DNA of 64,000 nucleotides from Candidatus Eiseniibacteriota bacterium (GCA_963707915.1 OY970178.1:2592001-2656000); one strand, 5' to 3'; positions 47,882 through 64,000 are shown, counted from the stretch's first letter. A program made the numbers and translations. Notes: a model not told the origin generated them from the sequence alone.

Positions 47882-49835
<1,954 letters not shown>

Positions 49836-49846
<11 letters not shown>

Positions 49847-51161
49847 GATCCACCTCGGAGGGTGCGCGGTGGGGCGCCGCCGGACGGGCGGGCCCGCCGG
49901 CGGGGGCCGGCACCAGCGCGGCGGCCGGGTCGCCGGCCCACGCGGCCTTCCGCACCTCCGCGTCGCGCCGTGCGGCGGTCGCGAGCGGCAGGCCGAAGAG
50001 CCGGATGAAGCCCCCGGCGTGCGTGGCGTCGTAGCCGGTCATGTCGAACGAGGCGAGCGCCGGCCGGTAGAGCGACCAGGGGCTGGTGCGGGCGACGGCG
50101 CGGGCCTGGCCGTGCCCGATCTCGACCGTGACCTCGCCGGTGGCGGGCTCGAGCGCGCGGTCGGTGAACGACTGCAGTGCCTCGCGCAGCGGCGAGAACC
50201 ACTGCCCGTTGTAGACCAGGTCCGCGTAGCGCGGCGCCAGCTCGGCGCGCGTCCTCAGCAGGTCGTGCGGCAGCACCAGCGCGCACAGGTCCTCGAGCGC
50301 CTCGCGCAGCACGGTGCCGGCGGGGGTCTCGTAGACGCCGCGCGACTTCATGCCGACCAGCCGGCTCTCGACGATGTCCACGCGGCCGACGCCGTGCCGC
50401 CCGGCCCGCGCGTTCAACTCCTCGACCAGCGCCACGGGGCCGAAACGCGTGCCGTCGAGGCTCACCGGCACGCCGGACTCGAAACCGACGACGACCTGCT
50501 CCGCCTGTGCGGGGCGCAGGCCGGGCCCGTTCGTCAGGCGATGCATGCTCTCGGGCGCGACCGTCCCCGGGTCCTCCAGCGGGCCGCCCTCGTGCGAGAG
50601 GTGCCAGAGGTTGCCGTCGCGCGAGAACAGGTCGCGCGAGGTCTGCGCGACCGGGATGCCGTGCCGCGCGGCGTAGGCCAGCGCGTCCTCGCGCGAGACG
50701 ATGTCCCACTCGCGCCACGGCGCGAGCACGGTGAGCTGGGGGGCGAGCGACTGGTAGGCCAGCTCGAAGCGGACCTGGTCGTTGCCCTTGCCGGTGCAGC
50801 CGTGCGCGACGGCATCGGCGCCCAGCTCCAGCGCCCAGTGCACCTGGCGCGCGGCGATGAGCGGGCGGGCGAGCGAGGTGCCGAGCAGGTAGCGGCCCTC
50901 GTAGATCGCGCCGGCGCGCAGCGCCGGGAAGGCGAAGTCGCTCACGAAGGGCTGGCGCAGGTCCTCGATCACGACCTGGCTCGCCCCGCTCGCGTGCGCC
51001 TTGGCCTCGAGTCCCTCGAGTTCGGCACCCTGTCCGACGTCGGAGCAGTAGCACATCACCTCGCAGCCGTGGCGCTCGCGGAGCCAGGGCACGATGATGC
51101 TGGTGTCGAGCCCGCCGGAGTAGGCGAGCATCACCTTCTCGATCTTCCGTCCGTTCTTCAC
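49836..51161 (-). CDS. argG: Argininosuccinate synthase
   Basis: LAYSGGLDTS, YLLGTSLARP, HGCTGKGNDQVRFE, GMKSRGVYETP; GTG start overlapping the argD stop. Confidence 0.97.
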
Positions 51162-52408
51162 GATGCTCCGCCTTTCGTCTCGAGTCGGGTCACTGCGGCC
51201 TCGAAGCGCTCCACGGCGAGCGCGATCTGTCCGGTGGTCACGTTGAGGGGGGGCAGGAAGCGCACGGCGTGCTCGCCGCCGCGCACCAGCAGCAGCCCGT
51301 GCTCGCGCGCGGCCCGCACCAGCTCGGGCGGCGCGAAGGGCGCCCCGGGAACGATCTCGACGGCGCGCAGCAGGCCGAGCCCGCGCGTCTCCGCGAGCGC
51401 GCCGTGACGCGCCACGACCGCCGCGAGCGCGGCGTCCAGCTCGCGTCCGCGCCGCCGCACGCGCGCGAGGAATCCGGGCCGGCGCACCCGCGCGAGCACC
51501 CAGCTGCCGGCCGCGGCGACCGCCGGGCCGCCGCCGAAGGTGCAGCCGTGCATGCCGGGCGCGAGCGCCTGCGCGACCTCGTCCGTCATGAGCACCGCCC
51601 CGAGCGGCAGGCCGCCGCCGAGCGCCTTGCTGAGCACGACCAGGTCGGCGCGCACGCCGAAGTGCTCCGCGGCGAGCAGCCGCCCGCAGCGGCCCATGCC
51701 GCACTGCACCTCGTCGAAGACCAGGGCGGCGCCGGACGCGGTGCAGCGCGCGCGCAGCGCCTCGAGGAACCCGCGCGTCGCGGGCACGGCGCCGCCTTCA
51801 CCCTGCACCGGCTCGACGATGACCGCGCAGACGTCCGTGCCGAGCGCCTGGTCCAGCCCGTCGATGCGGTTGAAGTCGGCGAAGCGCACGCCGGGCACCA
51901 GCGGCTCGAAGGGCTCGCGATAGGCGGGGGTCCAGGTCGCCGAGAGCGCGAATCCGGTGCGGCCGTGGAACCCGCCGCGGAAGGCGAGGATCGCGCGCCC
52001 CGGGCGCCCCGCGTGCCGGGCCCGCGCGCGGGCGAACTTGAGCGCCGCCTCGACGCCCTCGGTGCCGCTGTTGCAGAAGAACGCCCGCGGGTACCCGGTG
52101 GCGGCGGTGAGCTCCTCGGCCAGCGCGGCGCCGGGCGGGCTGGCGAACAGGTTCGAGCAGTGCGCCAGCGTGCGCAGTTGCCGTGCCACGGCGCGCGCCA
52201 GCCCGGGCGGGGCATGACCGAACGCGTTGACGGCGATGCCGCTCACGAAGTCGAGATACTCGCGGCCGTCGGGCCCGGTGGCCCAGGCCCCGCGGCCCGA
52301 GACCAGCGCGGGACGCGGCAGAGGGTAGACGGGCGCGAGCACGCCGACCTCGGCTTCGGCCAGGGCGGATGGCGCGGCCGCGACCGCGTCGTGCGGGAGG
52401 AGCGTCAT
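51158..52408 (-). CDS. argD: Acetylornithine aminotransferase
   Basis: YLDFVSGIAVN.FGH, NSGTE, FHGRT, EPVQGEGG, DEVQCG.GR.G, SKALGGG, HG.TFGG. Confidence 0.95.
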   Translation of the reverse strand: MTLLPHDAVAAAPSALAEAEVGVLAPVYPLPRPALVSGRGAWATGPDGREYLDFVSGIAVNAFGHAPPGLARAVARQLRTLAHCSNLFASPPGAALAEELTAATGYPRAFFCNSGTEGVEAALKFARARARHAGRPGRAILAFRGGFHGRTGFALSATWTPAYREPFEPLVPGVRFADFNRIDGLDQALGTDVCAVIVEPVQGEGGAVPATRGFLEALRARCTASGAALVFDEVQCGMGRCGRLLAAEHFGVRADLVVLSKALGGGLPLGAVLMTDEVAQALAPGMHGCTFGGGPAVAAAGSWVLARVRRPGFLARVRRRGRELDAALAAVVARHGALAETRGLGLLRAVEIVPGAPFAPPELVRAAREHGLLLVRGGEHAVRFLPPLNVTTGQIALAVERFEAAVTRLETKGGAS

Positions 52409-53253
52409 GGGCGCGGCCCGCCGTGTCCGGGACGGCCGGGGCCGCTCCAAGGGGGGCCTCCGATCGTCGTGCACCGCGCCGAGCCTGCGAGGATGGAAGC
52501 CAGCGCGCCGGGGCCGCTCCACGCGGCGATGTGGACCCGGCCCACGCCTGCGGCCAGCGCGGCCTGCGCGGCGCGCAGCTTGGGTCGCATGCCGCCGGTG
52601 ACCTGGGGGTTCGCGAGCGCCGCGTCGAGGGCGTCGCCGTCGAGGTCCGCCTGGAGGGTCTCGTCGAGGACGAGGCCCGGCGTGTCGCTCAGGAGCACCA
52701 GGGAGTCGGCGCCGAGCGCGCCCGCGAGCGCGGCGGCGAGGTCGTCGGCGTTGAGATTCATCAGCGCGCCGTCGCAGGCGCCGATGCTCGCGAGCACCGG
52801 CGTGCGGCCCTGGGCGAGCAGGCTCTCGAGCAGCGCCGGACGCACGTCGCGCACGCTGCCCACCGCGCCCAGCCGCGCGGCGTCCGGGTGCGGCCCGACC
52901 TCGGCGATCCCGCCGTCGAGCGCGGAGAGGCCCACCGCGTCCACGCCGCGGGAGCGCAGGCGCGCGACCAGGCGCCGGTTGGCCAGCCCCGCGAGGACGG
53001 CGGTCGCGACCTCGATGGTCGGGGCGTCGGTGACCCGCAGGCCGTCCACGAAGCGGGGCTCGAGGCCCAGCCGGCGGCACCAGGCGCTCAATTCGCCGCC
53101 GCCGCCGTGCACCAGCACCGCCCGGCCCGCGAGCCCGGCGAGCTCGTCCGCCAGCTCGTCGGCCGCGCCGGGCGATTCGAGCGCGCGGCCGCCGAGCTTG
53201 ACGACCGTGGGCCGCGCGGTCGCGGCGGCGACGTGGGCCGGCGCCGCGCTCAC
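52405..53253 (-). CDS. argB: Acetylglutamate kinase
   Basis: VVKLGG, VHGGG, GLRVTD, NLNAD, VTGGMRPK. Confidence 0.95.
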   Translation of the reverse strand: MSAAPAHVAAATARPTVVKLGGRALESPGAADELADELAGLAGRAVLVHGGGGELSAWCRRLGLEPRFVDGLRVTDAPTIEVATAVLAGLANRRLVARLRSRGVDAVGLSALDGGIAEVGPHPDAARLGAVGSVRDVRPALLESLLAQGRTPVLASIGACDGALMNLNADDLAAALAGALGADSLVLLSDTPGLVLDETLQADLDGDALDAALANPQVTGGMRPKLRAAQAALAAGVGRVHIAAWSGPGALASILAGSARCTTIGGPPWSGPGRPGHGGPRP

Positions 53254-54386
53254 CAGGGGCACCCGTGGACGGGCAGGCCGGTGGCCTCGGGCCAGCCCAG
53301 CACGAGGTTCAGGTTCTGGATCGCCTGGCCCGCCGCGCCCTTCACCAGGTTGTCGATCGCCGCCGCGGCCAGCAGCGTGGTCCCGCCGTGCAGCGTCGTG
53401 ACCGCGAGGTCGCAGCGGTTCGAGCCGCGCACGTGGCGCGTCTCGGGCCACTCGCCCGCGTCGAGCAGGCGCACGAAGCGCTCGCCGTCGTAGCGCTCGA
53501 GGTACGCCGCGCGCGCCTCCGCGGGGCTCACCGGGCGCGCGAGCGTCGCGCTGGCGGTCAGGAGGATGCCGCGCGCCATCGGGACGAGCTGCGGCGCGAA
53601 GGTCACCGGGTGCGCGGCCCCGGCGAGCCGGGCGAGGTTGCGCTCCATCTCGGGCACGTGGGGGTGTCCGGCGCCGGCGCGATAGAGCGCCGCGCCGCCG
53701 TCGAGTTCCACGAACGAGGTGCGCAGCGCGGACGCGCGCCCGGCGCCGCTGGCGCCCGAGACCGCGCTCACCATCACGGGCCCGGCGAGCCAGCGGGCGG
53801 CGGGCAGCAGGGCCAGCGTGGCGGCGGTCGGGTAGCAGCCCGGGTTCGCGATGCGGGAAGCCGGCGCGATCTCGTCGCGGAAGGCCTCGGGCAGGCCGTA
53901 GACGTAGGCCGGGCCCGGCGCGTGCGCCGCGTGGGCGCCGCCGTCGCGGAAGTCGGACGAGAGGTCCACGATGCGCGCCGGGCCCCGCGCCAGGGCCGGC
54001 CGTGCGGCGGCGAGCGCCGCCCACGCGCCGTGCGGCAGGCAGCAGACCAGCGTGTCGAAGGCGCCCGCGGCGAGCAGGGCCTCGAGGGCGGATGGATCCA
54101 CGACGGCGGGCAGGGCCGCCGCGCGCGGATCGAGGCCCGGGAGGAGGTCCGCCGCCGGCCGGCCGGCGTGCTCCCGCGAGACCAGCACGGTCACCTCGAG
54201 GCCGGGGTGCCCGAGCGCGAGGCGCGTCAGCTCCTGGCCGGAGTAGCCGCTGGCCCCGAGCAGCGCGAGGCGCGCCGTGCGGGGCGAAGCGTCCGCGGGC
54301 GCGACGCTGCCCGCCGGCGCGGAGGCGATGCTCCCGCCCCCGGCCGGACCCGAGCTCCCGGCCGTTCCCGGAACGGGGCAGCTCAC
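53250..54386 (-). CDS. argC: N-acetyl-gamma-glutamyl-phosphate reductase
   Basis: GASGYSG.EL, LPHG, DLSSDFR, YGLPE, IANPGCYPT, SGASGAG, IDNLVKGAAGQA.QN.N. Confidence 0.96.
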   Translation of the reverse strand: MSCPVPGTAGSSGPAGGGSIASAPAGSVAPADASPRTARLALLGASGYSGQELTRLALGHPGLEVTVLVSREHAGRPAADLLPGLDPRAAALPAVVDPSALEALLAAGAFDTLVCCLPHGAWAALAAARPALARGPARIVDLSSDFRDGGAHAAHAPGPAYVYGLPEAFRDEIAPASRIANPGCYPTAATLALLPAARWLAGPVMVSAVSGASGAGRASALRTSFVELDGGAALYRAGAGHPHVPEMERNLARLAGAAHPVTFAPQLVPMARGILLTASATLARPVSPAEARAAYLERYDGERFVRLLDAGEWPETRHVRGSNRCDLAVTTLHGGTTLLAAAAIDNLVKGAAGQAIQNLNLVLGWPEATGLPVHGCPW

Positions 54387-54859
54387 TTCCCGGTACCGGC
54401 CGGCTGGCCCTGGAGCGATTCGAGGCGGCGCTTGAAGCGCCGGGCCGCGGTCGTGTCCGCGGTCACCACGAGGATGGTGTCGTCGCCGGCCACCGAGCCG
54501 ACGATGCCGTCGAAGCCCGCGAGGTCGATGGCCCGCGCCACGGCGTTGGCGTGGCCCGGGGGGGTGCGCACGACCACGAGGTTCTGCGCCAGCCGGACGT
54601 CGTTGACGAAGGCCTTGAGGTCGAGGGACTGGCGCTCGCGGTCGAGGGCCTCGGTGGCGGGGCCCTGGAGCTCGTAGACCATGCGGCCGGAGGCGCCCGG
54701 CCGCTTGAGCACCCCGAGGCTGCGCAGGTCGCGCGACAGGGTGGCCTGGGTGACCTGGACCCCGGCGCGGGCGAGCGCCTTCACCAGCTCCTCCTGGCTC
54801 GAGAAGCGGTGCCCGGCGACGAGTTCGGCGAGCAACGTGAGGCGGCGCGGGCGCGGCAT
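54383..54859 (-). CDS. argR: Arginine repressor
   Basis: SQEEL, VTQATLSRDL, VVVRT.PG.A, GSVAGDDT. Confidence 0.96.
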   Translation of the reverse strand: MPRPRRLTLLAELVAGHRFSSQEELVKALARAGVQVTQATLSRDLRSLGVLKRPGASGRMVYELQGPATEALDRERQSLDLKAFVNDVRLAQNLVVVRTPPGHANAVARAIDLAGFDGIVGSVAGDDTILVVTADTTAARRFKRRLESLQGQPAGTGK

Positions 54860-54874
54860 CGAGACCTCCGGGAG

Positions 54875-54912
54875 TTTGAATAGATATGCAACACTATGAA
54901 TAAGAACACATG
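54875..54912. promoter_or_regulatory. Tandem ARG boxes (ArgR operator) overlapping the arg operon promoter
   Basis: TTTGAATAGATATGCAAC and TATGAATAAGAACACATG, 2 bp apart, AT-rich, just upstream of argR; similar to the TGAAT-N4-ATTCA consensus. Confidence 0.8.
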
Positions 54913-55001
54913 AGCCCGGGAGCCGTCAAGGGGCGGGGCGGACGACCGGCGGCCCCGCTCCCCCGCGGCCGCGCCGCCGCGTGGCGGGCAGGGCCGCGCG
55001 A

Positions 55002-55021
55002 CTGTCGCGCGTTCGCGACAG
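55002..55021. promoter_or_regulatory. Putative enhancer-binding protein site (CTGTCGCG-N4-CGCGACAG)
   Basis: Perfect 8-bp inverted repeat about 270 bp upstream of the sigma54 motif at 55290. Confidence 0.45.
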
Positions 55022-55289
55022 CCGGGCCGCCGGGGAGCGCGTTGCGACGCGCTCCCCGGTCACCGCGGCGCACGCGCGAACGGCGCCGCCGCCGCGGTCC
55101 GGCGTGATGCGCGGGTCGAAGCAGAGCCCGCTTGGAGAGCGGTCCGGGACCGCCGGATCGCGGCTTGGATCGCGGGCCCGGCGCCCCGGCCTGGTCCAAG
55201 CGGATAGGCGCTGTTCGGGGGCCGCCGGGCATCGAAGGGTCGAACCCGCGAGCGGCCGGCGGGTAGTAGATGACGGCGGGATCGTCCCG

Positions 55290-55305
55290 TGGCACTCCTC
55301 TTGCG
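55290..55305 (+). promoter_or_regulatory. Sigma54 -24/-12 promoter of the flavoprotein/multiheme/porin operon
   Basis: TGGCACTCCTCTTGCG matches TGGCAC-N5-TTGC, about 100 nt before the first gene. Confidence 0.8.
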
Positions 55306-55402
55306 GGCACGGAGCGATCCTCACGAAACGACGACAACGCGCAGTCCGCGGAACACGACCCCCCGCATTTCGGCCGCGAGGAGTCGCAACTTGCAATCCG
55401 CC

Positions 55403-56308
55403 GTGCTGGTCCACACCTCCAAGAGTGGCAGGACCCTCGCGATCCCCGCGGACCGCGCGGCGCTGGTGTGCCTGCTCGCGATCCCCCTCGGGGTCACCCT
55501 GCGATACCTGCCCTACTACGTGTCGGGCGTATCCAGCCGGGCGCGTGACCCGCTGCACCCCCTGCTGGGCCCGTCCGGGCCGGTCGGGATCTCGTTCGGG
55601 CTCGTGGGCGCAGCGCTCTTCCTGTTCATGTGGCTCTACCCGCTGCGCAAGCACCTGCCGGCGCTGCGCCGTGCGGGGAACCTGCGCACCTGGCTCCAGG
55701 TCCACATCCTGGCGGGTCTCGCGCTGCCGTTCGTGGTGGCCGTGCACGCGGGCTGGCGCTTCACCGGGCTCATCGGCCTGGGCTACGCCGCCATGGTGCT
55801 CGTGATCCTGAGCGGCGTCGTGGGGCGCTACCTGTACGGCCACATCCCCCGCCGGCAGGACGGGCTCGAGCTCTCGCTCGAAGCGGTGGCGAACGAACGC
55901 CGCGCCCTGCTCACCCGCATCGCCGCCGCCACCGGGCTCCATCCTGCCGAGGTGGATCACGCGCTCCACCCGGGCGCCGCGCCGGGCGCAGGCCGCGGCA
56001 TCGCGGGCACGCTCGCGCGCCTGGTCGCCGGCGACCTCGCGCGGCGGCGCGCGGTGCGCGAACTGGCGCGTCTCCGGGCGCAGCCACGGCCGGGCCTGCC
56101 ACCGCCGGACCCCCACGCGCTGGCCGAGGCCGTGAAGCTCGCCCGCCGGGAGGTGGCCCTGGAGCAGCAGGTCCGGATGCTGGGGGCCACGCAGCGCGTC
56201 TTCACCTGGTGGCACGTGGCTCACCTGCCGGTGGCGATCACGTCGTTCCTGGCCATCCTCGTCCACGTCGGCGTCGCCGTGCTCATCGGCGGCGTGATGC
56301 TGCGCTGA
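55403..56308 (+). CDS. Inner-membrane protein with two His-x13-His pairs (ferric-reductase-like putative di-heme b)
   Basis: YPLRK, WLQVHILAGLALPFVVAVHAG, SGVVGRYLY..IP, WWHVAHLPVAITSFLAILVHV; start uncertain (GTG 55403 chosen). Confidence 0.7.
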   Translation: MLVHTSKSGRTLAIPADRAALVCLLAIPLGVTLRYLPYYVSGVSSRARDPLHPLLGPSGPVGISFGLVGAALFLFMWLYPLRKHLPALRRAGNLRTWLQVHILAGLALPFVVAVHAGWRFTGLIGLGYAAMVLVILSGVVGRYLYGHIPRRQDGLELSLEAVANERRALLTRIAAATGLHPAEVDHALHPGAAPGAGRGIAGTLARLVAGDLARRRAVRELARLRAQPRPGLPPPDPHALAEAVKLARREVALEQQVRMLGATQRVFTWWHVAHLPVAITSFLAILVHVGVAVLIGGVMLR

Positions 56309-56312
56309 CGCC

Positions 56313-57800
56313 ATGAGCATGGCCCTCACCGTGCTCGGCTTCGCCGCGCTGACGGCGCTCTTCGCCTGGTGGCACGTGCGCGGCTCGGGCGCCGGCGTCA
56401 CGGCGTCCGACCTGCGGACCTGCCCGCGCTGCCGGGCCCGCTTCGCGGCCGGGGCCGTGTTCTGTCCGGGGTGCCGCGTGCCGGTGCAGGTCTACGAGCT
56501 GGTGAGCGCTCCGATCGCGGACGTCGCGGAGCCGCTCGACCTGGACGTGAAGCCGCACCCCATCGTGCGCACCGACCTGTGCGTGGGTTGCGGCACCTGC
56601 GTGGCGGCCTGCCCGGAGCCCGGGGCGATCCAGCTGGTGGACCACCACTCGTTCGTGGATCTCGACCGCTGCAAACGGCACGGGACCTGCGCGGCAGCCT
56701 GCCCGATGGGCGCCATCGTGATGGCGACGGGCGCGGCGGTGCAGCGCGTCGAAGTGCCGGACGTCGACGGCCACTTTCAGACCAACGTGCCCGGGCTCTA
56801 CGTGGTGGGAGAGCTGGGCGGGCGGGGGCTGATCAAGAACGCGATCAACGAGGGCCGCATCGCCATCGAGCACGTCGCGCGGGTGCTGGCGGCAGGCCGT
56901 CCGTGGCGGCCGGGCGAAGCCGGGCCGGCCGCTGCCGGATCGGACACGCCGGGCCCCTACGACGTGCTCGTGGTCGGCTCGGGCCCCGCGGGGCTCTCGG
57001 CCGCGCTCGAGGCGCAGCGCCTGGGCCTGCGTGCCGTCGTGCTCGAGCAGGGCTCGATCTCGGACACGATCCGCAAGTACCCCCGGCGCAAGCTCCTGCT
57101 CGCCGAACCCTCGCGCGTCCAGCTCTACGGCGGGCTGTGGGTGTCCGACGCCACGAAGGAGGAACTGCTGACGGTGTGGGAGACGATCATCGCGCGCGCC
57201 GGCCTGCGCGTGCGCACCGGCGAGCGGGTGGAGTCGCTGGACCACGACGGCGTGCTGTTCCGCGTGCGCACCCCGGGGACCGAGTACCAGGCCCGCAAGG
57301 TCGTGCTGGCGATGGGGCGGCGCGGCACGCCGCGGCGGCTGGGCGTGCCGGGCGAGGAGCTGGAGAAGACGCTCTACGACGTCGTCGAGATGGAGTCGTT
57401 CGCGGGCTGCCGCATGCTGGTGGTCGGGGGCGGCGACAGCGCGATCGAATCGGCGATCGGTCTCGCCGCCCAGCCGGACACCACGGTCACGCTCTCGTAC
57501 CGCGGGCAGGAGTTCCCGCGCGTGAAGGAGCGCAACCGCGAGAAGCTCGAGGCCGCGGTCCGGGCGTCCGGCAAGGACGGGGCGGGCCGCCTGGAGGTGC
57601 TGCTCGGCAGCCGCGCGGTCGAGATCCGCCCCGGGGTCGTGGCGCTCGACTGCGGGGGCATGGCCCGCCTGCTCCCCAACGACTACGTGATCGTCCGCAT
57701 CGGCGGCGAGCCGCCCTACCCGTTCCTCGAGCGCTGCGGCGTGCGTATCGTGACCAAGGAGATCGCGATCGAGACCGGCGCGGAAAGGCGGGCCGGGTGA
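56313..57800 (+). CDS. Membrane-anchored 2x[4Fe-4S] ferredoxin / FAD-NAD(P)H oxidoreductase (TrxB/YpdA-like fold)
   Basis: N-terminal TM, CPRC..CPGC ribbon, CVGCGTCVAACP, CKRHGTCAAACP, TNVPGLYVVGE, VVGSGPAG, LAMG, VVGGGDSA, SYR. Confidence 0.88.
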   Translation: MSMALTVLGFAALTALFAWWHVRGSGAGVTASDLRTCPRCRARFAAGAVFCPGCRVPVQVYELVSAPIADVAEPLDLDVKPHPIVRTDLCVGCGTCVAACPEPGAIQLVDHHSFVDLDRCKRHGTCAAACPMGAIVMATGAAVQRVEVPDVDGHFQTNVPGLYVVGELGGRGLIKNAINEGRIAIEHVARVLAAGRPWRPGEAGPAAAGSDTPGPYDVLVVGSGPAGLSAALEAQRLGLRAVVLEQGSISDTIRKYPRRKLLLAEPSRVQLYGGLWVSDATKEELLTVWETIIARAGLRVRTGERVESLDHDGVLFRVRTPGTEYQARKVVLAMGRRGTPRRLGVPGEELEKTLYDVVEMESFAGCRMLVVGGGDSAIESAIGLAAQPDTTVTLSYRGQEFPRVKERNREKLEAAVRASGKDGAGRLEVLLGSRAVEIRPGVVALDCGGMARLLPNDYVIVRIGGEPPYPFLERCGVRIVTKEIAIETGAERRAG

Positions 57801-59575
57801 GGGCCGCGCTCCCCGCCACCCTGGTCATGCTCTCGCTTGCCGTCGCCCTTCCCGCCCGCGCGCAGCTCTCGCCCGGGCCGCTCAGCGAGGCCCACCACGC
57901 GCTCGAGGGCGTCACGCAGTGTCTCCAGTGCCACGAGCGCGGCGCCGGCGTGGCGGACGCGAAGTGCCTCGCGTGCCACACCGAGATCGGCTGGATGCTC
58001 GGCCGCGACCGCGGGCTCCATCCCCGCGTGCGATCCACGCCCTGCGCGAAGTGCCATCCCGACCACGCCGGTCGCGACTTCCGGTTGGTGCGCTGGGACG
58101 AGGGCGCCCCCGGGCGCTTCGACCACCGGCGCGCGGGGTTCGCGCTCGAGGGCCGTCACGGGAGCCTCCAGTGCGCCGAGTGCCACCAGCCGCGCTTCCA
58201 GGGGTCGGGCGCCGCCGCGCTCATCCGCAAGCGGGACCGCGCGGGGAGCTGGCTGGGGCTCGATCGCGCCTGCGCCTCGTGCCACCACGATCCCCATCGG
58301 GGCCAGCTGGGTGCCACCTGCACGGCCTGCCACGGGCAGGTGGCCTGGAAACCGGCCGCGGGCTTCGACCACGCGAAGTCCGCCTACCCGCTCACCGACC
58401 GGCACGCCAGGGTCGAGTGCGCGAAGTGCCACCTCTCCCCGCGGCTCCCGCTCACCGCCGATGCGCAGGGGAAGCCCGTGCCGCTCTGGAAGCCGCTGCC
58501 GCACGCCGATTGCGCGTCCTGCCACCGGGACCCGCACTCCGGCCGGTTCCCGGGCGCCTGCGCGAAGTGCCACACGACGCGGGGCTTCCAGGTCTTCGAC
58601 GCGAGCGTGTTCGACCACGACCGGACGCGCTACCCGTTGCGCGGCCGGCACGCCTCCGTCGCCTGCGCGAAGTGCCACGATCCGAAGAAGCCGGGGGTGT
58701 GGAAGCCCCCCTATGACCGCTGTGACCGCTGTCACCGCGACGCCCACGCCGGTCAGGCCACGCTGGCGGGCCGCCCCGCCGACTGCGCCGCCTGCCACGC
58801 CGTCCAGGGCTGGAAGCCCTCGACCTACACGGTGGCCGCGCACCAGGCCTCGACCTATCCGCTCGAAGGACGTCACGCCGCGACCGATTGCGCGAAGTGC
58901 CACACGTCGGAACCGGACTCCCTCGCCGCCCGCCCGGCCGGCACGCGGGTGCGATTGCGGCCCGCCCACGCGCGCTGCCTCGACTGCCACGCCGACCCGC
59001 ACCGCGGGCGCTTCGAGCCGGGCGGCGCCCGCGCCAAGCGGTCGAGTTGCCGCACCTGCCACACCATGGACGGCTACAGGCCCACCCTGGTGGACGCCGC
59101 CGCGCACGCGCGCCTGGGCTACCCGCTCGAGGGGGCGCACCGCGCCGTGCCCTGCCAGGGCTGCCACGCCGAGCTGAAGCCCGCGCCGTCCGCGGCCGAT
59201 CCGGCGGTCCGGGGGGCCGTGGCAGGGCGCGATTCGCTGCGCGCGCTGCTCTTCGCCGACGCGGTCTCCGGCTGCGCGGGTTGTCACCCGTCCCCGCACG
59301 GCGAGCAGTTCAAGGGCCGCGGCCCGCGGGTGAAGGGCGGGCTGGCGGGCGACGCCTGCGACGCCTGCCACGGGCTCGAGGCCTTCAAGCCGGCGGAACG
59401 CTTCCGCCACGACCGGGACTCCGCGTTCCGGCTCACCGGGGCGCACGAGAAGGTCGGGTGCGGAGGCTGCCACAAGTCCTCGCGGGACGCGCAGGGGCGG
59501 ACCTTCGTGGTCTACAGGCCCACGCCCGCCCGCTGCGAGGAGTGTCATGTCCATCGACAGCAGGGGGCGTCATGA
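57797..59575 (+). CDS. Periplasmic 20-heme cytochrome c
   Basis: GTGA overlap; signal peptide ending ARA-QLSPGPLS..H; 20 CxxCH with recurring FDH...(F/Y)PL.G.H units. Confidence 0.92.
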   Translation: MRAALPATLVMLSLAVALPARAQLSPGPLSEAHHALEGVTQCLQCHERGAGVADAKCLACHTEIGWMLGRDRGLHPRVRSTPCAKCHPDHAGRDFRLVRWDEGAPGRFDHRRAGFALEGRHGSLQCAECHQPRFQGSGAAALIRKRDRAGSWLGLDRACASCHHDPHRGQLGATCTACHGQVAWKPAAGFDHAKSAYPLTDRHARVECAKCHLSPRLPLTADAQGKPVPLWKPLPHADCASCHRDPHSGRFPGACAKCHTTRGFQVFDASVFDHDRTRYPLRGRHASVACAKCHDPKKPGVWKPPYDRCDRCHRDAHAGQATLAGRPADCAACHAVQGWKPSTYTVAAHQASTYPLEGRHAATDCAKCHTSEPDSLAARPAGTRVRLRPAHARCLDCHADPHRGRFEPGGARAKRSSCRTCHTMDGYRPTLVDAAAHARLGYPLEGAHRAVPCQGCHAELKPAPSAADPAVRGAVAGRDSLRALLFADAVSGCAGCHPSPHGEQFKGRGPRVKGGLAGDACDACHGLEAFKPAERFRHDRDSAFRLTGAHEKVGCGGCHKSSRDAQGRTFVVYRPTPARCEECHVHRQQGAS

Positions 59576-59615
59576 GGAAGGCAGGCGTCATCTCCGGGCA
59601 CGCGGAAGGTCGGCC

Positions 59616-61508
59616 GTGAGGCGCCCCGGCCGGCCGGCACGGATCGGCGGCGTGCGGCTCGCGGCGCTGCTCCTGGCGGCATTGCCGCTCGTCCCGCTCG
59701 GGCTCGCCGCCGTCGCGGCCGACCGGCCCGCCGCGCAGCCGGCGGGAGAGCCCGATTACCCGCACGGGGCCTTCCAGGGCGACTGCTCGGAGTGCCACGG
59801 GGACGAGGGCTGGAAGCCGGCGCGCATCAGCCGGAACTTCGACCACGCGCGGCGCTCGGGGTTCGCCCTGGCCGGGGCGCATGCCGCGCTCCGGTGTGCC
59901 GCCTGTCACGGCACGCTCGACTTCTCCCAGCAGCGCAAGCTCTGCGCCTCGTGCCACCAGGATCCGCACCTCGGGGAGCTCGGGCCCGAGTGCGGCCGCT
60001 GCCACACCTCGCGCAGCTTCCTCGACCGCGCGGGCATGGTCCGCATGCACCAGTGGACGCGCTTCCCGCTGGCGGGCACGCACGCGGGGCTCGACTGCGA
60101 GGACTGCCACCCCCTGACGTCGCAGGGGCACCTGCGCTTCGCCGCGACCCGTGCGGACTGCTACTCGTGCCACCGTGCCGAGTTCGAGGGGGCGACCCGC
60201 CCCGCGCACGTCGCGGGCGGCTTCGCGACCGAGTGCTCGGCGTGTCACACGCCGCTGGCCTGGCGCCCCGCTCGCTTCGACCACTCGGGAGCCACCGACT
60301 GCGTCTCGTGCCACCGGGCCGACTACGACCGCACGACGGGTCCCGCGCACGCTGCCGCGGGCTTCCCGACCGCCTGCGCGACCTGCCACACGACCCGCGG
60401 GTGGCAGCCCTCGACGTTCGACCACGCCGCCACGGTGTTCGCGCTCACCGGCGCGCACCGGCAGACGCTCTGCGCGAGCTGCCACGGGAGTCCCTGGCAG
60501 AACGCGCTGGCCACCGACTGCTACTCGTGCCACAGGCCGGCCTACGACGCGACGATCGCGCCCGCGCACGCCGCGGGCGGGATCCCCACGACCTGCACCA
60601 GCTGCCACAACACGGTGGCCTGGCAGCCGGCGACGTTCGACCACGCGGCCACGCCGTTCCCGCTCACCGGGGCGCACGTCCAGGCGCCGTGCGCGAGCTG
60701 CCACGGGAGTCCCTGGCAGAACGCGCTGGCCACCGACTGCTACTCGTGCCACAAGCCGGCCTACGACGCGACGGCCGCGCCCGCGCACGCCGCGGGCGGG
60801 ATCCCCACGACCTGCGCGAGCTGCCACAACACGGTGGCCTGGCAGCCGGCGACGTTCAACCACGCGGCCACGCCGTTCCCGCTCACCGGGGCGCACGTGC
60901 AGGCGCCGTGCGCGAGCTGCCACGGGAGTCCCTGGCAGAACACGCTGGCCACCGACTGCTACTCGTGCCACAAGCCGGCCTACGATGCGACGGCGGCGCC
61001 CGCGCACGCCGCGGGCGGGATCCCCACGACCTGCGCGAGCTGCCACAACACGGCGGCCTGGCAGCCGGCGACGTTCAACCACGCGGCCACGCCGTTCCCG
61101 CTCACCGGGGCGCACGTGCAGGCGCCGTGCGCGAGCTGCCACGGCAGTCCCTGGCAGAACACGCTGGCCACCGACTGCTACTCGTGTCACAAGCCGGCCT
61201 ACGATGCCACCACCGACCCCGCCCACGCGGCGGCGGGGTTCCCGGTCACCTGCGCCACCTGCCACACGACGACCACCTGGCTCGGGGCGACGTTCGACCA
61301 CACCTGGTTCCCGATCAGCTCGGGCCGGCACTCGGGGAACTCGTGCGCGAGCTGCCACAACGCCCCGGCCAACTACGCCTCGTTCACCTGCCTCACCGCG
61401 GGGTGCCATTCGCAGAGCAGCACCGACGGCCACCACGACAGCGTCTCGGGGTACCGGTACGACAGCGCTGCCTGCTACTCGTGCCACCCGCGCGGGGCGG
61501 CCGGTTGA
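59616..61508 (+). CDS. Exported repeat-built multiheme cytochrome c (23 CxxCH + 1 CX4CH)
   Basis: Hydrophobic signal segment; 23 CxxCH plus CLTAGCH; start ambiguous (ATG 59547 or GTG 59616). Confidence 0.9.
   Translation: MRRPGRPARIGGVRLAALLLAALPLVPLGLAAVAADRPAAQPAGEPDYPHGAFQGDCSECHGDEGWKPARISRNFDHARRSGFALAGAHAALRCAACHGTLDFSQQRKLCASCHQDPHLGELGPECGRCHTSRSFLDRAGMVRMHQWTRFPLAGTHAGLDCEDCHPLTSQGHLRFAATRADCYSCHRAEFEGATRPAHVAGGFATECSACHTPLAWRPARFDHSGATDCVSCHRADYDRTTGPAHAAAGFPTACATCHTTRGWQPSTFDHAATVFALTGAHRQTLCASCHGSPWQNALATDCYSCHRPAYDATIAPAHAAGGIPTTCTSCHNTVAWQPATFDHAATPFPLTGAHVQAPCASCHGSPWQNALATDCYSCHKPAYDATAAPAHAAGGIPTTCASCHNTVAWQPATFNHAATPFPLTGAHVQAPCASCHGSPWQNTLATDCYSCHKPAYDATAAPAHAAGGIPTTCASCHNTAAWQPATFNHAATPFPLTGAHVQAPCASCHGSPWQNTLATDCYSCHKPAYDATTDPAHAAAGFPVTCATCHTTTTWLGATFDHTWFPISSGRHSGNSCASCHNAPANYASFTCLTAGCHSQSSTDGHHDSVSGYRYDSAACYSCHPRGAAG
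60291..61302 (+). repeat. Intragenic tandem repeat, 219-bp (73-aa, three-heme) unit, about 4.6 copies
   Basis: GCCACCGACTGC recurs at 60291, 60510, 60729, 60948 and 61167; the central copies are nearly identical in DNA. Confidence 0.95.
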
Positions 61509-63217
61509 GCGCGCCCCGCGTCCCGCGTCCGTCATGGCCGTGCCGGGGCCGCCGGGCCTGGCGCGCGCTGGCGTCATGCGCGGCGCTCGTCGCGCTGTCC
61601 CTGGCCGGTGGGCCAGTGGCGCAGGCGGCGGGGCGGGAGGCCCGCGTCAGCTACCTCGCCGGCGCATCGGTCTACGTGGACGCCGGCCGGGCGGAGGGCC
61701 TGCGGGAGGGCGACTCGCTGACGGTGGTGCGTGGGGGGAAGCCCATCGCCTGGCTGCGGGCCTCGTTCCTTTCCTCGCATCGCGCCTCCTGCGACACGCT
61801 GGGCACGCTCGCGCCCGTCCAGGTGGGCGACGTGGCGCGCTTCGTCCCCAGCCTCCCCGGTCTCGTCGATGCCGGGCGCGACTCCAACGCCGTGGCGCCC
61901 GGCGCGGCCCGGGCGATCGCCACGCCGCCTGCGGGTCCGCCCGTTCCCGGCCCGGCCCCGGGCGTTCCGCCGGGGATCGCCGCGTCCGTGGCCCCCGCGC
62001 CGCGCGTCGCGCGCGGCGGCGGACCGCTGCGCGGACGGCTCGGGGCGCGTTTCCTGACCGTGCAGAGCGACGGCGGCAACCGCCTCACCCAGCCGGCGTT
62101 CGACCTGCGGCTCGACGGTGTGAGCCTGGGCGGGGCGCCGGTCGACCTGGCGGTGGACTTCCGGGGCCGCCGCGTCACGCAGAGCGGTCCGGGGCGGACC
62201 CCGTCGAACCGGGACCGCGGCCTGTTCTACAGCCTCGCGCTCGCGACCCACGACGCGGGCGGACACTACCGGCTCACGGTCGGCCGGCAGCTCTCGCCGG
62301 CGCTCGCGCCCGTGAACCTGTTCGACGGCGCGCTGGTCGAGCGCCGCGGCGCGCGCTGGAACGCGGGGCTCTTCAGCGGCACGCAACCCGAGCCCCTCCG
62401 GCTTGGTCTGTCCGGGGCGATCGTCCAGGGGGGCGGCTACGTCGAGTGGCACCAGCCGCCGGGTGCGGCGCGGCGCTGGACCGTGAGCAGCGGTGCCATC
62501 AGTTCGTACGACCACGGCAACACCAACCGCGACTTCGGCTTCCTGCAGGGCTATTACCTGGACCGCGCGGTGAGCGCGACGCTCTCGCAGGAGGTCGACG
62601 TGAACCGCGGCTGGAAGCGCGAACGGGGCCAGCCCTCGCTCCAGGCGACGGGCACGTTCCTCACGACCAACGTGCGGGTCGGCTCCGCGCTCTCGTTGCG
62701 CGCCGGGTTCGACACCCGGCGGAACGTCTGGCTCTACCGGGACCGGACCACGCCCGAGAACCTGTTCGACGACCGCTACCGGCAGGGTGGCTGGGGTGGT
62801 GCGATGCTCGACGTCGCGCATCACTTCCGGCTCACGGGGGACGCGCGCACCAGCTCGATCGCGGGGGCCCGGCGCCAGGACGGCTGGACCGGCGGGCTCG
62901 AGGGCTACCGTTTCACCCCGCTCAACCTGGCGCTGCGCGCGCGCTACAGCCGGTTCACCGGCGGCGGCCAGGAGAACTCGCTGGCTTCGTTCGGGGCCGG
63001 TCTCGATCCGCTGGGCCGGGTGCACCTCGAGATGACCGGGGGGCAGCGCACCACGCGGGACGCGCTGGCCGGGGCCGGGGAGCGCTCGCAGTGGCTCGGC
63101 GCCGATCTCGATGTGATGCTGCCGGGTCGCGCCTACGCGAATGCCTCGTTCGAGAACGACACGGGTGGACTCGGCGCGTCGCGCCAGGCGTACTTCGGGC
63201 TGAGCTGGAGATTCTGA
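61505..63217 (+). CDS. Outer-membrane beta-barrel protein (putative porin of a porin-cytochrome conduit)
   Basis: TTGA overlap with the cytochrome stop; signal peptide; small N-terminal domain, Pro-rich linker, alternating amphipathic strands, C-terminal YFGLSWRF. Confidence 0.8.
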   Translation: MSAPRVPRPSWPCRGRRAWRALASCAALVALSLAGGPVAQAAGREARVSYLAGASVYVDAGRAEGLREGDSLTVVRGGKPIAWLRASFLSSHRASCDTLGTLAPVQVGDVARFVPSLPGLVDAGRDSNAVAPGAARAIATPPAGPPVPGPAPGVPPGIAASVAPAPRVARGGGPLRGRLGARFLTVQSDGGNRLTQPAFDLRLDGVSLGGAPVDLAVDFRGRRVTQSGPGRTPSNRDRGLFYSLALATHDAGGHYRLTVGRQLSPALAPVNLFDGALVERRGARWNAGLFSGTQPEPLRLGLSGAIVQGGGYVEWHQPPGAARRWTVSSGAISSYDHGNTNRDFGFLQGYYLDRAVSATLSQEVDVNRGWKRERGQPSLQATGTFLTTNVRVGSALSLRAGFDTRRNVWLYRDRTTPENLFDDRYRQGGWGGAMLDVAHHFRLTGDARTSSIAGARRQDGWTGGLEGYRFTPLNLALRARYSRFTGGGQENSLASFGAGLDPLGRVHLEMTGGQRTTRDALAGAGERSQWLGADLDVMLPGRAYANASFENDTGGLGASRQAYFGLSWRF

Positions 63218-63249: not shown

Positions 63250-64000
63250 TCATCGACCGACGACGGTCACGCGGGACGTGAGATGCCGGTCTCCCCGGGT
63301 CAGGCGGATGATGTAGACGCCCGGCTCCAGGGTCAGGCCCTCGGAGAGATCCACCACCTGGGGTCCGGCGACCGCCACCGTGCGCTCGCACACCCGGCGA
63401 CCGGCCACGTCGAGCAACTCCAGCCGGCCGGGCGCGGCGTCGGGCAGCGAGAGCGAGACGAAGACGCCGTGCGAGGCGGGGTTGGGCCGGGCCCCATCGA
63501 GGGCGAAGGCGAAGGCCGGCCCCGGCGGCACGACCGGCTCCGCGGGCACGTCCACCCAGACCTCGCCGCTCGCCTGCGGGCCGCTCCCGTCGATCCACGT
63601 GAGCCGGTAGGCGTAACGGCCGAGGGCGGTCACCGTGGTGTCCACGAAGACCAGCTGCCCGGAGCCGTCGGCCGCGCCCTCGCCGATGGCGGCGAAGCTG
63701 GTCGTCGGCTCGCGGCGCTCGATCGTCGCCACCAGGCTGCCCAGCGCGCTGGCGTACCAGGTCAGCGTCACGCGGTGGGGCGTGGCGGTGACGCCCGCGA
63801 GGCTGACCACGGCCATCGTGGTCAGCATCGGCACGGTCGCGGCGTAGATGTCGGGGTCGCCGTTGCGTCCGTCGCTCCAGGCCGCGTACAGGTTCGTGTC
63901 GTTCGCGAACAGGGACTGGTAGTCCCCCTGGTTGGGCGTGATGTTGCTGCCGACGTTGGTCCAGTTCGTCTGCACCGAGCTCAGGCTGCCGACCGAGGTC
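63250..64000 (-). CDS. C-terminal part of a secreted protein with a T9SS-A/FlgD-like C-terminal domain (partial, starts beyond right edge)
   Basis: Frame is open to the window end; GDY...AWSDGRNGDPDIY; FALDGARPNP...LELLDVAGRRV...PGVYIIRL...RVTVV. Confidence 0.8.
   Translation of the reverse strand, partial: TSVGSLSSVQTNWTNVGSNITPNQGDYQSLFANDTNLYAAWSDGRNGDPDIYAATVPMLTTMAVVSLAGVTATPHRVTLTWYASALGSLVATIERREPTTSFAAIGEGAADGSGQLVFVDTTVTALGRYAYRLTWIDGSGPQASGEVWVDVPAEPVVPPGPAFAFALDGARPNPASHGVFVSLSLPDAAPGRLELLDVAGRRVCERTVAVAGPQVVDLSEGLTLEPGVYIIRLTRGDRHLTSRVTVVGR

Follow-up and report, generated by a model that had tools for sequence, protein, structure and literature searches.

A candidate PCC3-type electron conduit with a conserved ferredoxin-flavoprotein partner in a Candidatus Eiseniibacteriota genome

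We analyze a five-gene operon in a 64,000-nucleotide stretch (hereafter, the window) of the genome of a Candidatus Eiseniibacteriota bacterium (GCA_963707915.1, OY970178.1:2592001-2656000), whose assembly is a single 3.62-Mb contig. The genes, g1 to g5, encode a five-helix inner-membrane protein, a membrane-anchored ferredoxin-flavoprotein, two very large multiheme cytochromes c and an outer-membrane beta-barrel. Judged by its gene content, its motifs and published descriptions, the cluster is a variant of PCC3, a cluster type that is already in print as a prediction; the new element is the flavoprotein g2 as a conserved partner of the inner-membrane protein. Current models of extracellular electron transfer begin at the quinone pool, and the operon described here could carry electrons across the whole cell envelope from an entry module of its own.

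The five genes and their predicted products

With about 75% G+C in the window, open frames are by themselves uninformative, and the five genes, which occupy 55391-63217 on the + strand, were picked by third-position GC content in each frame. Neighboring genes are separated by 4 nt or overlap. The features are:

55290-55304, + strand: sigma-54-type -24/-12 element TGGCAC-N5-TTGC, exact consensus
55391-56308, + strand: g1, 305 aa, five-helix inner-membrane protein, putative di-heme cytochrome b
56313-57800, + strand: g2, 495 aa, membrane-anchored zinc-ribbon, 2x[4Fe-4S] ferredoxin and flavin adenine dinucleotide (FAD)/NAD(P)H flavoprotein
57797-59575 (alternative start ATG 57827), + strand: g3, exported 20-heme cytochrome c
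59547-61508 (alternative starts 59616, 59652), + strand: g4, exported 24-heme cytochrome c
60291-61301, + strand: tandem repeat in g4, unit of 219 nt (73 aa), 4.6 copies
61505-63217 (alternative start 61481), + strand: g5, 22-strand outer-membrane beta-barrel, ending in WRF

An initial annotation, made from the sequence alone, had described five tightly packed and co-oriented genes behind a consensus sigma-54 promoter, encoding a membrane protein with two H-x13-H pairs, a membrane-anchored ferredoxin-FAD/NAD(P)H protein, exported cytochromes with 20 and 24 hemes and a beta-barrel that ends in WRF. The analysis below bears out this description of the locus.

The sigma-54-type element lies 87 nt ahead of the g1 start, inside a 530-nt intergenic region, and is one of two exact TGGCAC-N5-TTGC matches in the window. 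When the 300 nt upstream of g1 were scored for GG-N10-GC elements that agree with the consensus at 9 or more of 11 positions, 33 of 77 related loci had one, versus 13 of 385 random 300-nt windows from the same loci. The host genome encodes rpoN, and its 17 strong sigma-54 activator genes all lie outside the window; a sigma-70-like site sought in 54800-55500 was not found. Expression of the operon would be governed by sigma-54 from this predicted promoter. Among the sequencing runs listed there is no RNA run, and two DNA runs appear with small shares. Two adjacent inverted repeats lie at 54992-55059, 230-300 nt upstream of the element; the arms of one are 18 nt long at 83% complementarity, and those of the other (55030-55059) are 13 nt long and perfect. 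These repeats could be activator binding sites, but GC-rich palindromes are common here.

The AlphaFold2 (AF2) model of g1 (pLDDT 89.6, pTM 0.81) contains helices at residues 17-38, 64-86, 98-119, 126-150 and 271-299. Its two histidine pairs, H105-x13-H119 and H278-x13-H292, belong to two W-x3-H-x13-H motifs, one on helix 3 (W101, H105, H119) and one on helix 5 (W274, H278, H292), and helix 4 carries an SGxxG motif (S141-G142..G145). Across 72 relatives at 24-77% identity, W101, H105, H119, G142, G145, W274, H278 and H292 are invariant. Lysine and arginine are concentrated in the N-terminus, the loop between helices 2 and 3 and the 120-residue loop between helices 4 and 5, which together hold 24 of these residues versus 4 elsewhere. 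This distribution points to an N-in, C-out topology with the long loop in the cytoplasm, so that H105 and H278 would lie near the cytoplasm and H119 and H292 near the periplasm.

Searches of Pfam (E ≤ 0.01) and NCBIfam gave no match for g1. Weak matches among the 72 relatives fall in DUF4405 (PF14358; 44 relatives, best 5.7e-6), Ferric_reduct (PF01794; 33 relatives, best E 1.5e-4) and Ni_hydr_CYTB (PF01292; 24 relatives, best 1.1e-4), all of them heme-b membrane families, none of which g1 itself matches. The g1 family comprises 2355 cluster representatives at E ≤ 0.001. Its named relatives are all “hypothetical,” as are ten distant relatives, and the clusters nearest to g1 in a protein atlas, which come from Gemmatimonadota, Acidobacteriota and Myxococcota, are unnamed. 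From its motifs and model, g1 can be read as a divergent di-heme cytochrome b.

The second protein, g2, runs from an N-terminal hydrophobic helix and basic residues through a four-cysteine CxxC...CxxC ribbon and a ferredoxin to a flavoprotein domain, with Pfam matches to Fer4_10 (residues 83-131, E 2.4e-9) and Pyr_redox_3 (residues 219-479, E 1.1e-38). Its closest relatives in the PDB are YpdA/Bdr (7a76; 6.4e-31) and, after it, thioredoxin-reductase-type ferredoxin-NADP reductases (FNRs). g2 scores below the cut-offs for both YpdA (TIGR04018; 151.7 bits, cut-off 339.9) and thioredoxin reductase (TIGR01292; 70.4 bits, cut-off 343), and residues 216-495 contain no redox CxxC of the thioredoxin reductase kind; to our knowledge, YpdA has neither a ferredoxin domain nor a membrane anchor. 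No NOX-type, FNR-like dehydrogenase domain appears among the matches listed for g2, which fits Pyr_redox_3 and Pyr_redox_2.

We compared 42 homologues of g2 sampled from both its downstream and its upstream arrangements with respect to g1. Invariant in all of them are the cysteines of the first cluster motif, CxxCxxCxxxCP (C90, C93, C96, C100), the residues C120, H123, C126 and C130 of a CxxHxxCxxxCP motif (g2 residues 120-130; 56673-56705), both dinucleotide motifs and R397, the arginine that follows beta strand 2 of the NAD(P)H domain. The CxxHxxCxxxCP motif suggests a His-ligated [4Fe-4S] or [3Fe-4S] cluster; surface-exposed His-ligated clusters are exit points in hydrogenases, which we treat as a lead only. 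The N-terminal hydrophobic helix and the basic residues occur in all forms of g2, and the zinc ribbon only in the downstream-type forms. We infer that g2 is a cytoplasmic, membrane-tethered NAD(P)H:iron-sulfur module that may prefer NADPH. In some genomes of the phylum there is also a second, paralogous flavoprotein that is about 42% identical to g2 residues 140-480 (contigs G145:C168, G013:C90, G027:C140, G167:C15, G187:C549 and G026:C115); it has no ferredoxin part, lies within long open frames and occurs in genomes with or without the conduit.

The first cytochrome, g3, packs 20 CxxCH motifs into 582 aa (29 aa per heme; arginine 10.5%). It matches Pfam Cytochrome_C7 (8.5e-25) and, weakly, HmcA (22.7 bits, cut-off 400), and its N-terminus resembles a signal peptide; it is probably a periplasmic wire. 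The second, g4, has 23 CxxCH motifs and one CxxxxCH motif (26 aa per heme), with 18.8% alanine and 9.9% threonine, and matches Mtrc-MtrF_II-IV_dom above the cut-off of 30 (5.5e-13, 49.2 bits). Only g4 scored against TIGR03508, the decaheme MtrA/DmsE-type model, and it remained below the cut-off (37 bits, cut-off 192.2). Its tandem repeat was delimited by Tandem Repeats Finder (89% matches, score 1449), and each unit contains three heme motifs, counted by eye from the translation. Sequence features of this kind make g4 probably an extracellular cytochrome.

The AF2 model of g5 (mean pLDDT 78.9, with most barrel blocks near or above 90) starts with a signal helix and a small beta domain, predicted to be periplasmic; a disordered linker connects these to a barrel of 22 strands that takes up residues 175-570. 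Foldseek returned 323 matches in the PDB at E ≤ 0.001, outer-membrane barrels throughout among the matches listed, and the best of these is the PapC usher pore (7.5e-11). No named family in Pfam or NCBIfam was matched, the MtrB-type barrel included. We place the start of g5 at 61505 or 61481 because homologues of 570 aa align over the whole length. The stored gene call P0271 (533 aa) begins at 61616 and omits the signal peptide.

Linkage of the flavoprotein and genomic surroundings

The initial annotation had suggested a search of gene neighborhoods as a check, and other genomes indeed encode the flavoprotein and the membrane protein alongside the cytochromes and the barrel. With this, the barrel model of g5 and the four invariant histidines of g1, the refuting conditions that the annotation had named do not overturn it. 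g1 is present in 17 of 41 relatives. Among 16 loci from relatives, eight have the five genes in the same order and one has no separate g4, the rest being cut by contig ends. Variation in the system lies in the predicted extracellular cytochrome, with none to three separate g4-like genes per relative: three stand in a row between g3 and g5 in L013 (G025:C26), and L016 has none that is separate.

We then drew on a collection with one genome per species, taking the best 80 of 369 stretches with a g1 relative. In 77 of these 80 loci g2 adjoins g1, directly downstream on the same strand in 59, upstream and divergent in 15, and upstream on the same strand in 3. The three exceptions are a locus with a partial g2-like piece elsewhere; L106, with only 551 nt upstream of g1; and L073, to which we return below. 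Where at least 9 kb of room was available, g2, g3, a separate g4 and g5 were all present in 46 of 49 loci.

The association extends to more distant forms. For eight loci with distant g1 relatives within the phylum (29-35% identity), g2 adjoins g1 in seven, directly upstream on the same strand in six and upstream and divergent in one; the locus with none is a very distant one. A subfamily of g1 from soil metagenomes (32-39% identity; 80 kept of 200 relatives) has the gene order cytochrome, cytochrome, barrel, inner-membrane protein, g2. There, g2 follows the gene for the inner-membrane protein in all 49 loci with at least 1.5 kb of sequence at that position, and of the 27 loci that reach 7 kb or more upstream, 23 have g4-like and g5-like genes.

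The phyletic pattern of the two genes matches as well. Across 201 genomes of the phylum, with g2 counted at E ≤ 1e-50, g1 occurs in 74 and g2 in 74; the two occur together in 71, g1 alone in 3 and a g2-like gene alone in 3, and 124 genomes contain neither. The three g1-only genomes comprise two contig-edge fragments and one very distant homologue, and the three g2-like-only matches start after residue 115 and have no ferredoxin part. In two genomes about 10 kb of one contig separate g1 from g2, and in G040 g2 is on another contig. The adjacency of g1 and g2 through at least four rearrangements, together with their matching presence and absence, is strong evidence from gene order and distribution that the two proteins work together.

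Two sets of candidates were set aside. Two distant variants (L023, L024) had appeared to be without g2; their contigs break off shortly before g1, and where loci of this kind extend further, g2 is present upstream. P0153 and P0132 had been considered as g1-g2 fusions; the low-complexity sequence that joins the two parts reads as out-of-frame translation, so these entries show adjacency only and are probably frameshift or gene-calling artifacts of high-GC contigs.

To the left of the five genes lies a divergent arginine operon, argR-argC-argB-argD-argG-argH (47882-54859, - strand), in which argR occupies 54383-54859 (- strand) and argH is fused to a GNAT acetyltransferase. Directly upstream of the divergent argR, a short AT-rich island (54877-54915) stands out in this 75% G+C genome; it contains two TGAATA-containing stretches that resemble the consensus of ArgR operator boxes. 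To the right of g5, a convergent gene (63250-64000, - strand) continues beyond the window and has a sub-threshold match to a type IX secretion C-terminal sorting domain (E 8.1e-4).

A predicted electron path and its alternatives

We give an even chance to the reading that the operon is a PCC3-type conduit across the whole cell envelope with its own cytoplasmic entry module. g2 would sit at the inner face of the inner membrane, with its one helix as a tether, and would pass the hydride of NAD(P)H to its FAD and then, as single electrons, through two iron-sulfur clusters. From there electrons would reach the cytoplasm-side b heme of g1 (H105/H278) and its periplasm-side heme (H119/H292), continue to the 20-heme g3 in the periplasm and arrive at the cell surface through the 24-heme g4 with the barrel g5. 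Outward flow, by which reducing equivalents would be discharged onto Fe(III), Mn(IV), humic or similar acceptors, is the most likely direction, since electrons leaving the cell follow both the membrane potential and the redox gradient; inward reduction of NAD(P)+ is unlikely. The reading is favored by the gene content and motifs, by the PCC3 signature of g1 together with the weak heme-b family matches of its relatives and its di-heme fold matches, by the lasting linkage of g1 and g2 and of the whole five-gene set, and by the positive-inside count, which puts the long g1 loop and the body of g2 in the cytoplasm. The interpretation offered by the initial annotation is thus borne out in part.

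Several points weigh against this reading, and some of them reappear below with the alternative that they favor. The first group concerns the putative heme protein. At E ≤ 1, the only Pfam match of g1 is a chance-level IclR helix-turn-helix row (E 0.34), and Foldseek finds nothing in the PDB for the g1 model at E ≤ 0.001; a profile of the 72 relatives run against PDB sequences likewise gave only coiled-coil noise (best E 1). Exhaustive structural alignment places di-heme four-helix proteins among the best rows, namely a designed two-heme protein (Z 9.8), CybB (5oc0; Z 9.7, rmsd 3.4, 134 aligned), FdnI (1kqg_C; Z 8.5), STEAP4 (Z 8.3, rmsd 5.6, 151 aligned), STEAP1 (Z 8.1), NOX5 (Z 8.0, rmsd 6.3, 145 aligned) and HyaC (Z 7.7), but matches between helical bundles are informative only from a Z of about 13, and every g1 match falls below that value. 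Designed proteins, ABC-transporter domains and other unrelated helical bundles also figure in the best rows. Contact between g1 and g2 would be expected on the proposed path; prediction of the g1+g2 complex gave scores of 0.32, 0.30 and 0.28 against a mark of 0.32, which, without control runs, count neither for nor against such contact.

A second group concerns the linkage and the physiology. In L073, neither the 9 kb upstream of g1 nor the 3.8 kb downstream contains g2, and the loci are related by descent, so that the counts given above overstate the number of independent observations. PCC3 is presented as a four-gene cluster whose function is experimentally untested, both in its original description (He et al. 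2017, PMC5566968) and in later accounts, including a survey of Gallionellaceae (PMC9900912; 10.1101/2025.02.27.639646). If electrons flowed outward from NAD(P)H, membrane potential would be dissipated and no energy conserved at this step, and the host genome also encodes complex I and a heme-copper oxidase; taken together, these points suggest that the conduit would be an extra, regulated outlet. The match to heme-copper oxidase subunit I (G000:C1:1399300-1400573) falls into five pieces with differing open-frame lengths, which could reflect assembly frameshifts or a broken gene.

The alternative that survives best, although we consider it somewhat unlikely, is a quinone-linked one, in which g1 is a quinol oxidase or quinone reductase, g2 is an accessory NAD(P)H dehydrogenase and the quinone pool is used; g2 would reduce quinone at or near g1 or keep the hemes poised. 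CybB, FdnI and HyaC, all among the best fold matches of g1, are quinone-reactive cytochromes b. A quinone-linked role was proposed for the PCC3 inner-membrane protein by He et al., who suggest that it carries two b hemes and exchanges electrons with the quinone pool (PMC5566968). Zhong & Shi 2018 describe three families of inner-membrane components through which extracellular electron transfer is known to start, and every one consists of quinol oxidases or quinone reductases; MsrQ, a membrane heme protein, is described as carrying bound ubiquinone, and g1 may have a quinone site as well. However, a pool that is fed by complex I would need no dedicated flavoprotein, g2 remains next to g1 in four or more gene orders and shares its phyletic pattern, and g2 has a membrane-tethered iron-sulfur relay of its own.

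Inward uptake is improbable. Electrons would enter from extracellular Fe(II), minerals, cathodes or partner cells, pass through g5, g4 and g3 to g1 and g2 and reduce NAD(P)+, and the cell would gain reducing power without reverse electron transport. Thioredoxin-reductase-type FNRs are reversible, which counts for this direction. So does the history of PCC3, which was first found in Fe(II)-oxidizing bacteria, where electron flow is thought to be inward (PMC5566968), and the inner-membrane protein of one PCC3 copy in Sideroxydans CL21 is reported as upregulated during iron oxidation (10.1101/2025.02.27.639646). Yet such flow would be uphill twice, as Fe(II) couples have potentials far higher than that of NAD(P)+ and the membrane potential opposes the flow, the operon has no ion-coupling component, and Eisenbacteria are described in the literature as peptide-degrading heterotrophs.

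Equally improbable is a non-respiratory service, likened to repair by the NADH -> MsrQ -> MsrP chain or to eukaryotic ferric reductases, in which NAD(P)H-fed hemes of the periplasm or cell surface would be kept reduced for detoxification of extracellular oxidants or metals or for iron mobilization: MsrQ provides a published precedent for a cytosolic NADH oxidoreductase that feeds a membrane heme protein serving a periplasmic enzyme, sigma-54 control suggests conditional expression and the flow conserves no energy, but 44 c hemes and an outer-membrane barrel would be a heavy outlay for protection and the operon has no gene for a periplasmic enzyme.

Returning to the outward, NAD(P)H-fed conduit, we tentatively extend it to other phyla: it is possible, though we would not call it probable, that in Eisenbacteria, Gemmatimonadota, Acidobacteriota and other phyla of soils and sediments the PCC3-type conduits span both membranes, oxidize cytoplasmic NAD(P)H independently of quinones and are assisted by the membrane potential. 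If this is true, they represent a fourth kind of inner-membrane entry beside CymA, CbcL and ImcH, and acceptors too low in potential for quinol-fed pathways become reachable. A dedicated entry from NAD(P)H through a flavoprotein and a di-heme b protein, if real, would change the calculation of pathway energetics and of reachable acceptor potentials. The PCC3 inner-membrane protein would also gain a concrete, assayable partner, g1 and g2 together amounting to only 800 residues, and soil phyla that are abundant and for the most part uncultured would seem able to shed reducing equivalents onto minerals.

Comparison with known systems

The initial annotation had not recognized the operon as a characterized system; the cluster proves to be a variant of the predicted PCC3, which He et al. 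2017 described together with PCC4 in iron oxidizers and other Proteobacteria (PMC5566968). Their PCC3 “conserved inner membrane protein” has five helices in about 300 aa, with a W-x3-H-x13-H motif on each of helices 3 and 5 and SGxxG on helix 4 between them (PMC5566968), and g1, with its 305 aa, five helices, SGxxG and two W-x3-H-x13-H motifs, carries the same signature. Both clusters have an outer-membrane barrel, which here is g5 by its model, and two very large cytochromes. The published periplasmic cytochrome has a median of 21 hemes, the extracellular one is repeat-rich and rich in alanine, threonine and serine, and a low aa-per-heme ratio belongs to the description as well (PMC5566968); g3, with 20 hemes, and g4, which is repeat-rich and rich in alanine and threonine, would occupy the corresponding locations. 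The differences are a fifth conserved gene, the ferredoxin-flavoprotein g2 adjoining the inner-membrane protein; the position of the gene for that protein, which comes first here; and the hosts, which are Eisenbacteria, Gemmatimonadota and Acidobacteriota here and Proteobacteria in the published cases. The main text of He et al. 2017 never mentions FAD, ferredoxin or flavoprotein, its supplementary files contain no oxidoreductase, FAD, ferredoxin, 4Fe-4S or pyridine nucleotide, and the titles and abstracts that came up in full-text literature searching do not describe a flavoprotein partner.

PCC4 subgroup II is similar in that its inner-membrane protein has the same motif pattern and adjoins a gene for an Fe-S protein, pfam13247 (PMC5566968). 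It differs in that its published description includes no flavoprotein, and three periplasmic cytochromes but no extracellular one. According to He et al., the inner-membrane proteins of PCC3 and PCC4 share no significant sequence homology (PMC5566968).

The inner-membrane module had also been called “NOX-like,” which is not borne out as a statement of membership, given that g1 has no Pfam match, that Ferric_reduct is matched only weakly and by 33 of the 72 relatives, and that g2 has a thioredoxin-reductase-like fold; the term stands as an analogy only. What g1 shares with NOX, ferric reductases, STEAP and MsrQ is the pairs of histidines 13 residues apart on helices 3 and 5, with hemes placed across the membrane (predicted for g1), and in the superfamily of NOX and MsrQ electrons likewise come from a cytoplasmic nicotinamide-dependent flavoprotein, a role predicted for g2. 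In the case of MsrQ, this reductase is described as a separate cytosolic NADH oxidoreductase, and the protein served is the periplasmic enzyme MsrP. In contrast, g1 has five helices where these proteins have six, and it has no Ferric_reduct match; g2 combines a flavoprotein of the thioredoxin reductase fold with two iron-sulfur clusters where they use an FNR-type dehydrogenase domain; and the predicted acceptor here is a multiheme cytochrome, in place of O2, an Fe(III) chelate or MsrP.

A functional likeness links the operon to the di-heme succinate:quinone reductases and to the Hmc and Tmc complexes of sulfate reducers, in which a cytoplasmic flavo- or iron-sulfur protein is docked on a membrane cytochrome b and, in Hmc, the chain connects with a 16-heme cytochrome in the periplasm. 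These systems have other subunits and cofactors and no outer-membrane part.

At the outer membrane, the closest counterparts are MtrCAB of Shewanella and the Pcc system OmbB-OmaB-OmcB of Geobacter, which likewise pair a barrel with two multiheme cytochromes, one in the periplasm and one outside the cell; g4 scores above the cut-off of the domain II/IV family of MtrC and MtrF. The proteins of the present operon carry far more hemes each, and their predicted inner-membrane partner is of the heme-b type and comes with a flavoprotein, whereas MtrCAB and Pcc are fed by CymA, CbcL or ImcH, and their partner is described as a multiheme c-type quinol oxidase.

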